A stretch of 64,000 nt of DNA. Origin: Candidatus Kaiserbacteria bacterium. GTDB taxonomy: Bacteria > Patescibacteriota > Minisyncoccia > Phycocordibacterales > Phycocordibacteraceae. The stretch covers positions 3,184 through 67,183 of the forward strand of contig JACRFL010000013.1 in NCBI GenBank assembly GCA_016217905.1. Reading direction: 5' to 3'. Positions 3,153 through 52,344 of this stretch are shown piece after piece. Positions within the stretch are counted from its first letter, which is position 1. Each line of letters starts with the position of its first letter. The notes beneath the pieces are model-generated. The model was given only the letters and a program-made list of their open reading frames with translations, did no database searches and was not told the DNA's origin. Position numbers and translations under genes: made by a program.

Positions 3153-3710
3153 GTGAGTGACTTTCTTGCACGCCGATGGCAAATGTGGAGCGCGCCGTTT
3201 TTGCTGACGCCCGACAATGTCGACGACAAAGACCTTGCGCTCCTGCCTGAAAAAATCGGCGCAAACTATCTTCTCTATCATCGCGTGAACAATCAAATCT
3301 GCGCCGATCTCCTACCCGACCTCGCCTCGGGCAAGCGGGTGAGCCGCTGTATCGAGGTGATTGGCCCCAGGCGCGGCATGTGGGACGGAGAGAAGGTCGG
3401 CAGTGCAGCCCCTCCCCTCAAGATCGGAGACAAATGGTTGATGATCTATCACGGCGTCTCGCGCCACGCCACCTACCGTCTCGGTGCCGCGCTGCTTGGA
3501 GCGAATGGTACGACGGTTCTTGCGCGCACCGCCGATCCGATCTTCGAACCGCTTGAAGACTATGAAAAGAGGGGCGAGATTGCGAACGTCGTCTTCTCCT
3601 GCGGCGCTGTCGTTCGCGACGATATGCTCTTTCTCTACTACGGCGCCGCCGACAAGGTCATCGGCGTCGCGACCGCGTCGCTCGCGCACATTCTCGATGC
3701 GCTTTCATAA
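3153..3710 (+). CDS. Tandem GH130 protein, part 2: C-terminal half of the second GH130 domain
   Basis: Same frame as 1794..3146, two codons after the TAG, with only a GTG start. LLPEKIGANYLLYHR and LYYGAADKVIGVATA match the C-terminal half of the 616..1791 paralogue. Confidence 0.6.
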   Translation: MSDFLARRWQMWSAPFLLTPDNVDDKDLALLPEKIGANYLLYHRVNNQICADLLPDLASGKRVSRCIEVIGPRRGMWDGEKVGSAAPPLKIGDKWLMIYHGVSRHATYRLGAALLGANGTTVLARTADPIFEPLEDYEKRGEIANVVFSCGAVVRDDMLFLYYGAADKVIGVATASLAHILDALS

Positions 3711-4453
3711 TGCCACCACTCGTCATTTTCGACCTTGACGGCACGCTCGCGGAAAGCAAGCAACCGATCACGAGCGAGATGGGGATGCTCGTTGCGAAAT
3801 TGCTCGACGTGACGCAGGTCGCGGTCGTCTCTGGCGGCGCGCTTTCCCAATTTTTGAAGCAGGTGGTGGCGAAGCTCCCTCCGGATGCGCGCCTTGAACA
3901 TTTATATCTTCTCCCGACATCTGGCGCCGCGCTCTACGAGTGGCGAGGCGACGCGTGGAGCAAAATATACGAGGAGCGTCTCTCCGAAACGGAAAAAGAA
4001 ACCATCGAGACAGCGATACGTGCGGCGGCGAAGGAGACCGGATGTATCGACTTCTCGAAAAGTGCGTGGGGCGAGCGCATCGAATATCGCGGCGGGCAGG
4101 TGACGCTCTCCGCGCTCGGCCAGCAGGCGCCGCTCGACGAGAAAAAGGCCTGGGACCCCGACCACTCGAAACGTCATGCACTCCACGCCGTGCTGAAAGA
4201 ACGGCTGCCTAACTTTTCGGTGGGCATCGGCGGCGCCACGAGCATCGACATCACAAAACGCGGCGTCGATAAGGCATACGGCATTCGAAAACTCTGCGAA
4301 CGTCTCGGTATTCCGGAATCCGAGGTGCTCTATATCGGCGACGAGCTTGCCTCCGGCGGCAATGACGAGGCGGTCTACAAAACGAACGTGCGTGCGGAAA
4401 ACGTCGGCGGCCCGTCCGATACCGAACGCCTTATCAAAAGCATGGTGAAATAA
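3710..4453 (+). CDS. HAD-IIB hydrolase, eukaryotic-type phosphomannomutase-like
   Basis: FDLDGTLAESK motif I, VAVVSGG, SIDITKRGVDKAYG and GDELASGGNDEAV. The start overlaps the previous TAA by 1 nt (TAATG). Confidence 0.7.
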   Translation: MPPLVIFDLDGTLAESKQPITSEMGMLVAKLLDVTQVAVVSGGALSQFLKQVVAKLPPDARLEHLYLLPTSGAALYEWRGDAWSKIYEERLSETEKETIETAIRAAAKETGCIDFSKSAWGERIEYRGGQVTLSALGQQAPLDEKKAWDPDHSKRHALHAVLKERLPNFSVGIGGATSIDITKRGVDKAYGIRKLCERLGIPESEVLYIGDELASGGNDEAVYKTNVRAENVGGPSDTERLIKSMVK

Positions 4454-10273: not shown

Positions 10274-11965
10274 ATGACAAAAGACGAATTGAAAAACGCG
10301 CTTGCGGGTGTCCTGCAAGGGGAAGTATCGAATGATGCGGTGGCGCTTGAGAAAGCGAGCCGCGACACCTCCCTCTTCGAGCGAATGCCGAAGCTGGTAG
10401 TGTATCCAAAAGATGCCAAGGACGTGAGCGCGGCGGTGAGAGAGGTAGCCCGCGCCCGCTCCGCGGGCGCGGATGTATCGCTTGCGGCGCGCGCGGGCGG
10501 GACCGATATGTCGGGCGGCCCCTTGACCACTAGCATCGTGGTTTCCTTCACCAAACACATGAATCATGTACTCGAGGTTTCCTCCAACTTGGAGGCCCGG
10601 CCTCCAAGTGAAGGATATGCGGTGACGGAACCGGGGGTTTATTATAGGGATTTTGAAAAGGCGACGCTTGAAAAAGGCTTCATACTTCCCTCTTATCCCG
10701 CCAGCCGCGAGATAGCCGCCATGGGCGGCATCGTCGCGAACAATTCCGGCGGCGAGCGCACGCTCAAGTACGGCCAGACGGAGCGGTACGTCGAGGAACT
10801 GGAGGTCGTGCTCTCTGACGGTTCGCAAGTTACGTTCAAAGCGTTGACACCTGCGGAATTGGAGGAAAAAAAGAAACTTCAGACGCTTGAAGGCGCCATC
10901 TACCGCGAGATGGACGCGCTTATCACCGACAATGCCGGGCTCATCGAGGGGCGCCGGCCGCGCGTGTCGAAGAATTCCGCCGGCTACGCGCTCTGGAGCG
11001 TACTTGATGCGAAAACCGGCACCTTCAATCTCGCGAAGCTGATCTGCGGCTCCCAGGGGACGCTCGCCCTCTGGACGAAGGCGGAGCTCTCCCTCGTGAA
11101 GCCGAAAGGGCACCGCGCGATGCTCGTCGCCTTCCTCTACGACCTTTCCGACCTCCCCGAAATAGTAAAGCGCGTGCTCGCGCAGGGCCCGGAATCTTTC
11201 GAATCTTATGACGACCACACCTTCACGCTTGCGGTGAAATTCATTCCCGAGATGCTTTCGCAGATGGGCTTGTTTAAGGCCGCGCGGCTCGGCATCGACT
11301 TCATCAGCGAAGCGGCAATGGTCGCCACCGGCGGCGTGCCGAAGCTCATCTTGATGGCGGAATTCGCCGAGGACACTATCGAGGAAGCCGATCGGAAGGC
11401 GCTTCTCGCGAAGGAAGCGCTCGCCGACCTTCATCTTCATACCAAAATAGAGAAGGATGAGAAAGAGTCGGAGAAGTATTGGATCGTCCGACGCGAGAGC
11501 TTCTCGCTCCTGCGCAAGAACGTTCACGGGCTCCACACCGCGCCTTTCATCGACGATTTCGTCGTTCCGCCTTCGAGCTATCCCGACTTCCTGCCGAAAC
11601 TGAACGCGCTTCTCGAGGAATACTCATCGCACTTCATCTACACGATCGCGGGACACATCGGCAACGGCAACTTCCACATCATTCCGCTCATGGATCTCAC
11701 GAAGGAGGAGAACCGACAAGTCATCCTCGACCTTGCGCCCCGAGTCTACGAACTCGTCACCCGAGAGGGTGGCACGACGACCGGCGAGCACAACGACGGC
11801 ATCATCCGCACGCCGTACCTCAAGCTGGTTTTCGGCGCGGAAATGGTCGCGCTCTTCGAGCGGACGAAAAAAATCTTCGATCCTTTGAATATTTTCAACC
11901 CCGGGAAGAAAGTCGGCGGCACGTTTGCTGACATCGAGCGGGACATGATTAAGACGGCACCGTAA
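10274..11965 (+). CDS. FAD-binding oxidoreductase (GlcD/D-lactate dehydrogenase-like)
   Basis: ARAGGTDMSGGPL FAD_binding_4-type motif and GTTTGEHNDG in the C-terminal domain. ATG 10274 preferred over the track start 10217. Confidence 0.8.
   Translation: MTKDELKNALAGVLQGEVSNDAVALEKASRDTSLFERMPKLVVYPKDAKDVSAAVREVARARSAGADVSLAARAGGTDMSGGPLTTSIVVSFTKHMNHVLEVSSNLEARPPSEGYAVTEPGVYYRDFEKATLEKGFILPSYPASREIAAMGGIVANNSGGERTLKYGQTERYVEELEVVLSDGSQVTFKALTPAELEEKKKLQTLEGAIYREMDALITDNAGLIEGRRPRVSKNSAGYALWSVLDAKTGTFNLAKLICGSQGTLALWTKAELSLVKPKGHRAMLVAFLYDLSDLPEIVKRVLAQGPESFESYDDHTFTLAVKFIPEMLSQMGLFKAARLGIDFISEAAMVATGGVPKLILMAEFAEDTIEEADRKALLAKEALADLHLHTKIEKDEKESEKYWIVRRESFSLLRKNVHGLHTAPFIDDFVVPPSSYPDFLPKLNALLEEYSSHFIYTIAGHIGNGNFHIIPLMDLTKEENRQVILDLAPRVYELVTREGGTTTGEHNDGIIRTPYLKLVFGAEMVALFERTKKIFDPLNIFNPGKKVGGTFADIERDMIKTAP
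10581..10609. repeat. Palindromic element family A copy, inside the FAD oxidoreductase CDS
   Basis: CCTCCAA-C-TTGGAGG-CCCGG-CCTCCAAGT. The core ACTTGGAGGCCCGGCCTCCAAGT is the reverse complement of the 38453 copy. Encodes SSNLEARPPS. Confidence 0.8.
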
Positions 11966-12569: not shown

Positions 12570-12596
12570 CCCGCGGACGGCTTTGCCGTCCGCGGG
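12570..12596 (-). terminator. GC hairpin CCCGCGGACGG-CTTTG-CCGTCCGCGGG downstream of the SipW/TasA-like operon
   Basis: 11-bp perfect arms. No clear U-tract, so its function is uncertain. Confidence 0.3.
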
Positions 12597-52298: not shown

Positions 52299-52344
52299 GA
52301 GAGCCACGCGATTTCCGGCGTTAGCCGGAAATCGCGTGGCTCTC
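52299..52344. repeat. 46-nt hairpin with 21-bp perfect arms; the sortase stop codon sits in the GTTA loop
   Basis: GAGAGCCACGCGATTTCCGGC-GTTA-GCCGGAAATCGCGTGGCTCTC. Confidence 0.85.

Follow-up and report, generated by a model that had tools for sequence, protein, structure and literature searches.

A dispersed palindrome in a Candidatus Kaiserbacteria contig is probably a REP/RAYT-type mobile repeat of candidate phyla radiation bacteria

In this study we analyse a short palindromic repeat, ACTTGGAGG-N5-CCTCCAAGT, in a stretch of 64,000 nucleotides from a Candidatus Kaiserbacteria bacterium (contig JACRFL010000013.1); this whole stretch is called the window below. The palindromes of this kind in the window, together with an inverted doublet at 20127 and a remnant at 19133, are most probably copies of a non-autonomous element of bacteria of the candidate phyla radiation (CPR), of the type known from repetitive extragenic palindromic sequences and their REP-associated tyrosine transposases (REP/RAYT). 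The repeat belongs to a family that recurs across CPR genomes, it is present or absent at one codon-exact site in the gene of a flavin adenine dinucleotide (FAD)-binding oxidoreductase, and in relatives of the organism it is linked to a gene whose product has the fold and the motifs of a Y1 transposase. An earlier note, made from the letters of the window, had likened the palindrome to REPs, to miniature inverted-repeat transposable elements (MITEs) or to the Rickettsia palindromic elements (RPEs), and the idea of a mobile palindrome is supported by its enrichment both in the window and across CPR genomes.

Copies of the palindrome in the window

The 23-mer ACTTGGAGG-N5-CCTCCAAGT was found at three sites (10587-10609, 38453-38475 and 42382-42404, with up to three mismatches allowed), against 0.00 in 100 dinucleotide shuffles. 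The generalised pattern TTGG-N3-N5-N3'-CCAA, in which no more than one mismatch was allowed between the inner triplets, gave five units in the window where 0.48 are expected. The copies and the host gene of the first are:

10274..11965, plus strand: FAD-binding oxidoreductase gene (FAD_binding_4 and FAD-oxidase_C domains), 563 amino acids (aa) from the ATG at 10274, host of copy 1
10587..10609: copy 1, ACTTGGAGGCCCGGCCTCCAAGT, that is ACTTGGAGG-CCCGG-CCTCCAAGT, in frame within the oxidoreductase gene
38453..38475: copy 2, ACTTGGAGG-CCGGG-CCTCCAAGT, exact reverse complement of copy 1
42379..42407: copy 3, with 12-nt arms, CCAACTTGGAGG-TCCGG-CCTCCAAGTTGG
20127..20170: inverted doublet of the GGAAG-CGAAG variant, AACTTGGAAGCGAAGCTTCCAA followed by TTGGAAGCTTCGCTTCCAAGTT, a perfect 44-nt palindrome resembling a REP doublet forming a hairpin (REPIN)
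19133..19147: truncated core, GGAGGCCGGACCTCC, intergenic, without the ACTTGG outer arms

What the earlier note had stated about these sequences (copy 1, copy 2 as its reverse complement, copy 3, the core at 19133 and the doublet at 20127) holds throughout; the full consensus that it gave, with 12-nt arms, is complete in copy 3 only. Copies 1 and 2, which are distinguished by their central base only, have the 9-nt arm ACTTGGAGG and a stem of 10-11 bp once the loop-closing bases are included; copy 3 has T at the loop-closing position where the others have C. An additional half-arm, CCTCCAA, lies upstream of copy 1 at 10581-10587. The hairpins predicted for single copies range from -10.8 to -13.9 kcal/mol as DNA and from -17 to -21.6 kcal/mol as RNA, with copy 1 at -12.2 and -21.6 kcal/mol.

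Two of the copies lie between genes. Copy 2 takes up most of the 29 nt that separate the stops of two convergent genes, an RNB-domain (rnr-like) gene at 36499..38448 (+) and an SMC_N (smc-like) gene at 38478..40688 (-). There it fits the pattern of a terminator, a hairpin plus a T-run, on the plus as well as the minus strand, with RNA hairpins of -17 and -18.7 kcal/mol. Copy 3 begins 1 nt past the stop of rpmF (L32p) and upstream of a NusB-NUDIX gene, both genes being on the minus strand; its minus-strand RNA hairpin is predicted at -20.6 kcal/mol and no T-run stands behind it. The neighbouring gene is a single open reading frame (ORF) at 41411-42382 (-) that fuses NusB to a NUDIX hydrolase domain.

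The doublet at 20127-20170 consists of abutting units at 20130 and 20149. It sits within the coding frame (NLEAKLPIGSFASKFK) of an MTS-domain (prmC-like) gene, 19887..20669(+), where the product has a variable linker, and is predicted to fold at -24.1 kcal/mol as DNA and -36 kcal/mol as RNA; the same linker holds other palindromes in the related loci L121 and L122. The core at 19133-19147 matches the inner 15 nt of copy 3 exactly in reverse complement, where about 1e-4 chance 15-mer matches are expected in the window, and we read it as a remnant because its fold energy is no better than that of shuffles.

Neither a tRNA nor a known RNA family explains these sites. A tRNA scan found no tRNA genes in the window, which excludes a tRNA-linked repeat, and an Rfam scan at gathering thresholds of the window and 12 clustered loci gave no family at the palindromes.

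Insertion in the oxidoreductase gene

Copy 1 in the oxidoreductase gene is a real insertion, with a net gain of 27 nt, in the loop of a modelled beta-hairpin. The host ORF, also open from 10217 (10217/10274..11965), gives a product 100% identical to protein P0001, in which the palindrome encodes the peptide SSNLEARPPS. Many close orthologues have 554 aa instead of 563 aa, and in the alignment all of this difference falls at the palindrome, with ...HMNxVLEVGD--DYAVTEPG as the short form and about nine additional residues at the gap in long forms. An insertion of about 8 aa had been proposed at this point in the earlier note, and the palindrome-free orthologues are indeed 9 aa shorter at exactly that site. 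When the flanks are matched, the empty orthologues show a gap of -4 against the 23-nt core, from which a net gain of 27 nt (9 aa) follows. The DNA at the site reads as follows:

Window: ACTTGGAGG-CCCGG-CCTCCAAGT
Locus L123, empty orthologue: GTC GGC GAC GAC TAT
Locus L120: ACTTGGCGG-TTTCA-CCGCCAAGT
Locus L121: ACTTGGGGG-TCCGA-CCCCCAAGT
Locus L122: 9-codon insert, palindrome gone

The site is empty in 34 of 58 metagenomic orthologues and in 60 of the 117 most similar proteins, and we take the empty state to be ancestral because it is found on nearly all deep branches (50-70% identity). In an AlphaFold (AF2) model with a predicted local distance difference test (pLDDT) score of 73, the inserted residues 104-112 form the loop that joins the antiparallel strands 99-103 and 113-118, which agrees with the earlier suggestion of a surface linker between strands of the FAD domain.

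The filled sites differ widely in what they hold. Variants of the present palindrome, here called family A, occur there with GGAGG, GGCGG, GGGGG or GGAAG, and also as tandem or inverted doublets (for example in proteins P0017, P0018, P0020 and P0078). An unrelated palindrome, family B (ATGTAGGAC-N5-GTCCTACAT), occupies the site in L126, L129, L143, L144 and L158; it occurs three times in L126 and also in the window at 35366-35390, and no transposase was found linked to it. In L164, as in proteins P0082 and P0103, the site is filled by a palindrome of a third family, and some filled sites carry non-palindromic remnants of the same length. In a neighbour-joining tree sisters differ in state, with family A in L121 and B in L129, B in L126 and A in L156, and A in L120 where L134 is empty. 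A single ancient insertion cannot explain the site, because sister taxa carry differing states and unrelated families; one ancient insertion followed by covariation is likewise weakened as the sole explanation, with unrelated palindromes at the same site in sister lineages. Judging from these sequences, insertion, replacement and decay recur at this loop.

One filled site has the REPIN-like form. In L207 (JAUSFZ010000028.1, 3303-3349) an inverted doublet lies in the coding frame (NLAAKPPSYLGVSPPS); each half is an imperfect hairpin, GGCGG being paired with CCCCC, and the 47-nt whole is a perfect palindrome. The copies at the RAYT gene of this contig are GGGGG-TTTCA/TGAAA, the FAD site holds a GGCGG/GGGGG hybrid doublet whose loops are CGAAA/TTTCG, with a GGAGG copy close by, so that the expected match between FAD-site and RAYT-linked variants of one genome was only partly borne out. 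Small palindromes also make up several of the 'empty' FAD sites (GTCGGCGAC; stems of 9-11 bp in L128 and L173).

Palindromes are frequent in the window as a whole, which has 22 perfect hairpins with a stem of 10 bp or more where shuffles give 0.47. The second family, B, is represented by ATGTAGGACGTACGACGTCCTACAT at 35366-35390 and the related GTGGGACGTACGACGTCCCAC at 57547-57567, and a third, with the core GAAGTCAGACTTC, lies at 22428-22452 and 43441-43461. Other long palindromes, likewise perfect and with arms of 11-21 bp, were seen at 52299-52344, 60569-60608, 43563-43593, 20559-20587, 12570-12596 and 56182-56206; those inside ORFs include 20559-20587 (the prmC-like gene) and 43563-43593 (an RNase HII gene).

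The family across genomes

We searched a genome collection of 596 Gb for the exact pattern ACTTGGAGG-N5-CCTCCAAGT, which has 18 specified bases. It occurs in at least 119 stretches and at no fewer than 149 sites, where about nine chance matches are expected. Among the 119 listed loci, 106 carry the label of a CPR lineage (Paceibacterota, Kaiser-, Nomura-, Zambryski-, Vogel-, Yonath-, Taylor-, Niyogi- and Moraniibacteria, and metagenome-assembled genomes (MAGs) labelled Saccharibacteria), 10 are unclassified and three are labelled otherwise. The local G+C content of the listed loci extends from 30% to 58%, that of the window being about 58%. Two MAGs labelled Bacteroidia (L042 at 6841, L086 at 3124) have the exact motif at the same position of an orthologous ORF (ELGG[KN]TSKF), and L028, labelled Bdellovibrionales, has it too; the copies under these labels could be due to chance, mis-binning or transfer.

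The consensus element has a 10-bp stem and a 3-nt loop, ACTTGGAGG-Y-NNN-R-CCTCCAAGT. The outer part of the stem, ACTTGG/CCAAGT, is invariant, whereas lineages differ in the inner 3 bp and the loop, and a flank bias, (C/T)(A/C)...(T/G)(G/A), is confined to positions +/-1 and +/-2. In family members that were not selected by pattern the inner triplets are perfectly complementary in 43 of 50, with 10 triplet types and a spacing that is always 5 nt; therefore the hairpin is maintained while its inner sequence changes. Loop identity, counted up to reverse complement, is found in 84% of pairs within a locus, in 61% of pairs on different contigs of the same assembly and in 6.6% of pairs from different assemblies. 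The loop variants are genome-specific, and this is evidence of amplification within genomes.

The stem often continues into the flanks of a copy. Among 148 copies (L001-L119) it is extended by 3 bp or more in 30% against 4% in the null, and by 5 bp or more in 13.5% against 0.6%. Either insertion into hairpin loops or inverted copying of one flank would give such complementary flanks. Many copies form the centre of a longer, unique hairpin (e.g. L005 4983, L020 4650, L071 769), and some of these longer hairpins resemble intrinsic terminators split by insertion.

A transposase gene linked to the repeat in relatives

Loci in which three or four copies lie a few hundred bases apart all carry the gene of a protein of about 220-240 aa. 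The earlier note had asked for RAYT- or IS200-like genes, and it is such a gene, with the Y1/HUH signature of RAYTs, that the same palindrome flanks in relatives. A Y1_Tnp gene of about 220 aa is contained in 22 of the 119 listed 8-kb loci, where about one locus is estimated by chance on the assumption of about one gene per 1-Mb genome. The protein passes the Pfam model Y1_Tnp ('Transposase IS200 like') with 30.9 and 29.9 bits (cutoff 23) and matches NCBIfam REP_Tyr_transpos weakly, with 25 bits, far below the cutoff of 80. The HUH motif (NPNHFH) and Tyr144 are invariant in 50 sequences, and the protein family comprises 3711 members at E<=1e-5, some of them named RayT by the Joint Genome Institute (JGI). 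In the full-length loci the palindrome is placed as follows:

Just upstream of the transposase gene: 16 of 19 loci
Just downstream of the transposase gene: 14 of 19 loci
Inside the gene, in frame, at about aa 60-78: 13 of 19 loci
Inside the gene, in frame, at about aa 154-184: 11 of 19 loci

The peptide HQLGGxTSKL, which the repeat encodes, follows the catalytic-tyrosine helix in all close members of the protein family and falls into a gap in the distant homologue L003. In the AF2 model of the transposase (pLDDT 80) it forms a low-confidence loop, and the protein has a long C-terminal helix. With this model as query, Foldseek ranked first 4ER8_A (E 7.9e-5, TM 0.61 on the target), a structure of E. 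coli TnpA-REP in complex with a REP hairpin, ahead of TnpA of ISDra2 and IS608; a sequence search of the PDB with the RAYT found nothing. Four genes with one or two in-frame copies of their own repeat, and their neighbourhoods, are:

L070, 4963-5631(-): RAYT gene near leuS/ychF
L111, 6748-7464(+): RAYT gene near tig
L124, 4022-4696: RAYT gene near prfA/rpsB
L125, 2193-2861: RAYT gene near surface-protein genes

Two of these, L124 and the Kaiserbacteria locus L125, belong to relatives of the organism of the window and show the same layout of repeat and RAYT. L124 is on the same contig as an FAD oxidoreductase of 80% identity. The RAYT gene of L125 is flanked by, and contains, the variant ACTTGGAAG-CGAAG-CTTCCAAGT, which is exactly half of the 20127 doublet. 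Four further, more distant clades of CPR RAYTs each have a flanking palindrome of their own. In L149 a palindrome related to the third family, TTGAAGTCWGACTTCAA, flanks and lies inside a distant RAYT gene at 3438-4234. The close relative L122 (JAPLWH010000026.1) also has, in the region 17356-19836, an RVT_1 reverse transcriptase gene two genes from a bAvd-like gene, a pair that suggests a diversity-generating retroelement.

Copies inside genes

For the intragenic count we excluded 38 copies in or next to RAYT genes and called a frame open when it had at least 50 codons on each side. Of the remaining listed copies, 42 of 111 (~38%) are intragenic, in long open frames; by a looser count over all listed copies 44% lie in open frames against 68% of random positions, a depletion. 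The frames are used unevenly, as LGGxTSK 22 times, LExxPPS 17 times and TWRxxLQ three times. Outside the loop the core has a stop codon in no frame, as read from its letters, and this makes in-frame survival possible. Nine of ten scanned host ORFs bear Pfam domains (PurL-, XseA-, LeuRS-, RNase R-, YchF-, RecJ-, LigA- and M1 peptidase-type, these eight being conserved genes for enzymes or GTPases, and one TPR-repeat protein), and within them the copy lies mostly between domains. This is the pattern expected of broad insertion with selection sparing only tolerated sites.

Proposed mechanism and its weighing against alternatives

We suggest that the RAYT-like protein mobilises the repeats by a single-strand hairpin mechanism. 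The Y1 (HUH) transposase would recognise the folded hairpin on single-stranded DNA and would cut and rejoin beside it, so that copies might spread within the genome. Selection would then purge harmful insertions, and the surviving copies would be found at the 3' ends of genes, where some, perhaps copy 2 among them, might double as terminators or mRNA-end hairpins, or in frame within protein loops and linkers, copy 1 being one such survivor. The genome of the window presumably encodes, or once encoded, a RAYT of its own outside the window.

Several points weigh against this REP/RAYT reading. Mobility is deduced from sequence comparison. A RAYT gene was found neither in the 64 kb of the window nor in the 3.2 kb past its right end (covered by a 6.6-kb Logan contig, where the hairpins are absent too). 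The earlier note had likewise seen no transposase in the window, where tblastn with six diverse CPR RAYTs (E<=10) picked up nothing beyond noise and the peptide that the repeat encodes; the strongest match (E 0.003, 21250-21444) was rejected as antisense to a bPH_2 gene. For the genome of the window the putative link to a transposase comes from relatives, whose genomes were covered as pieces of 8-22 kb. The RAYT neighbourhoods differ across lineages, which fits a self-moving insertion sequence as well as a domesticated RAYT. The compensatory changes in the arms could stem from template switching within the hairpin instead of selection. The repeat has no GTAG/CGTC tag, and the cleavage chemistry of REPtrons is not simply transferable to it. 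Finally, one protein loop has been hit by several palindrome families, so that the choice or the tolerance of sites must matter, and on this the simple model is silent.

A bolder version of the REP/RAYT reading, possible in our view but a good deal less likely than the plain one, is that the CPR elements are a distinct branch of hairpin transposases. In it every RAYT gene would carry, in frame and directly behind the codon of the catalytic tyrosine, the hairpin that its product targets, as a self-recognition or autoregulatory feature and not as a neutral self-insertion; the repeats would insert into the loops of pre-existing DNA hairpins, and this would bring about recurrent length variation in loops and linkers of the housekeeping proteins of these reduced genomes. 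Insertion into hairpin loops, if true, would explain both the complementary flanks and the several families on one protein loop.

Among the rival explanations the one that survives best, although we judge it unlikely, is that the gene is an autonomous insertion sequence (IS) of the IS200/IS605 type, with the solo hairpins as by-products or miniature derivatives (like MITEs or palindrome-associated transposable elements, PATEs), and not a domesticated RAYT with its REPs. The chemistry of the enzyme would be unchanged; the evolutionary status is what differs. Such an IS would sit well with a protein that is 'Transposase IS200 like' for Pfam and reaches 25 of the 80 bits asked for by REP_Tyr_transpos, with neighbourhoods that vary by lineage (L070, L111, L124, L125) and with an outer stem common to about 80 assemblies of many CPR orders, which could reflect horizontal spread. 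However, both ends of the gene carry the same palindrome as the dispersed copies and not distinct left and right ends, two full gene copies were seen in none of the loci examined, and the four loci read for gene content (L070, L111, L124, L125) had no tnpB. The closest structure is that of TnpA-REP, ahead of TnpA of IS608 and ISDra2, a scan of IMG/VR viral contigs gave 0 copies, and the genome-specific loop variants are like those of vertically evolving REPIN populations.

It is much less probable that the palindromes are functional RNA or transcription signals, such as intrinsic terminators or stabilisers of mRNA 3' ends, which are kept alike by selection and owe nothing to mobility. This explanation can draw on the hairpin and T-runs of copy 2 on both strands between convergent genes, on the start of copy 3 just 1 nt after the rpmF stop, on the stable RNA hairpins (-17 to -21.6 kcal/mol) and on several copies elsewhere that lie within longer stems followed by T-runs. 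Yet terminators are not conserved in sequence across orders, T-runs stand behind 30% of the copies against 23% of random positions, Rfam gave no match, and some 38% of the dispersed listed copies are in coding frames. Nor would it account for the presence and absence at one codon-exact site, with differing families in sister lineages, or for the physical linkage to a transposase gene. A terminator role is at most secondary and exapted, for some copies; in the window a secondary bidirectional role is plausible for copy 2 only.

Template switching or fold-back synthesis might also create palindromes de novo wherever a site is prone to form hairpins, their likeness then being due to convergence with no dedicated enzyme, but we hold this to be highly improbable. 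The small palindromes at 'empty' FAD sites (GTCGGCGAC; L128, L173), the complementarity of the copy flanks far beyond chance and the three unrelated families in one FAD loop all speak for it; convergence cannot produce identical sequences of 18-23 nt at unrelated sites of one genome and in about 80 assemblies, and the linkage to a RAYT gene is a further objection. Fold-back copying may still be the source of the site-specific outer arms.

A DNA-uptake-type signal, or sites of a dimeric DNA-binding protein or a restriction-modification system occurring as inverted pairs, might come to mind as a dependence on DNA uptake is commonly assumed for CPR bacteria and uptake sequences of Neisseria are often inverted pairs in terminators, but its probability is negligible: an uptake sequence is rejected on single-arm counts, lone arms being almost absent (CTTGGAGG occurs four times in the window, three of them in palindromes, and CCTCCAAG three times, all in palindromes) and ACTTGG plus CCAAGT totalling 19 against 16.4 +/- 4.3 in shuffles, the 5-nt spacing is fixed, the inner stem covaries and is not conserved, and the copies are insertions relative to orthologues.

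The repeat is of practical use as well. It provides a sequence signature for Paceibacteria-type contigs and accounts for some of the short indels by which CPR proteins vary; for annotation it is a warning that perfect hairpins within CPR genes are insertions and not errors. A RAYT without the GTAG tag offers a way to study how a cleavage site is chosen.

Comparison with known systems

The kind of system is known, and its CPR branch appears to be undescribed. Work on REP/RAYT systems has been confined almost wholly to Proteobacteria; in the full-text literature that we searched, nothing relevant on REP/RAYT in CPR was found. Two things go beyond what the earlier note had proposed: the family is CPR-wide, and the element lacks several of the features that define classical REPs and RPEs.

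The likeness to REP/RAYT systems (TnpA-REP/yafM of E. coli with its REPs and bacterial interspersed mosaic elements (BIMEs), the group 3 RAYTs of Pseudomonas and Stenotrophomonas) lies in a short dispersed palindrome of 20-40 nt, often at gene 3' ends, in the same palindrome on both sides of a Y1 HUH transposase gene (here in relatives), in genome-specific 'master' variants with occasional inverted doublets, and in a transposase model closest to 4ER8. In the literature reviewed, only group 2 and 3 RAYTs (Enterobacteria, Pseudomonas) have been tied to REPINs (preprint 10.1101/2022.05.22.493013). The GTAG/CGTC tag guides cleavage in the REPtrons studied so far (PMC8266576), but the CPR palindrome has no such tag at its foot: GTAG flanks 12.8% of copies against a background of 10%, and CGTC 4.7% against 12%. 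In further contrast to REPs, the CPR palindrome is perfect and symmetric, its strands differing in the 3-nt loop only, and its outer stem is conserved across many orders where REPs are species-specific. Some classical REPs also lie inside ORFs (PMC3733652); about 38% of the dispersed listed CPR copies being intragenic and in frame is, in our judgement, high for a repeat that is defined as extragenic. The CPR transposase differs as well, with its ~220 aa, the long C-terminal helix, one or two in-frame copies of its own repeat and a score far below the NCBIfam cutoff for RAYTs.

With IS200/IS605 elements (IS608, ISDra2) the CPR system shares the fold and the motifs of the Y1 HUH transposase, and recognition of subterminal hairpins on single-stranded DNA is the chemistry to be expected of that group (PMC6006769). 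Unlike these elements, it has flanking hairpins that are identical to each other and to the solo copies, with no distinct left and right ends; no tnpB was present in the loci read, and several full copies per genome were not evident in pieces of 8-22 kb.

RPEs reportedly sit in frame in housekeeping genes (Ogata et al. in 2000), and they are roughly 100-150 bp long. The CPR element, compared with them by description and not by sequence, comes from another phylum and is several times shorter (23-29 nt). We know of no dedicated transposase for RPEs, whereas the CPR element is physically linked to a RAYT-like gene. Common to both are the reduced genomes of host-dependent bacteria and the presence of in-frame palindromes in many unrelated housekeeping genes, where they add a peptide at tolerated positions; the in-frame insertion of RPEs into genes has been summarised before (PMC3733652). 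In conclusion, the family described here unites traits that are usually separate: linkage to a Y1 transposase as in REPs, in-frame residence in housekeeping genes as in RPEs, and an outer stem that spans orders.

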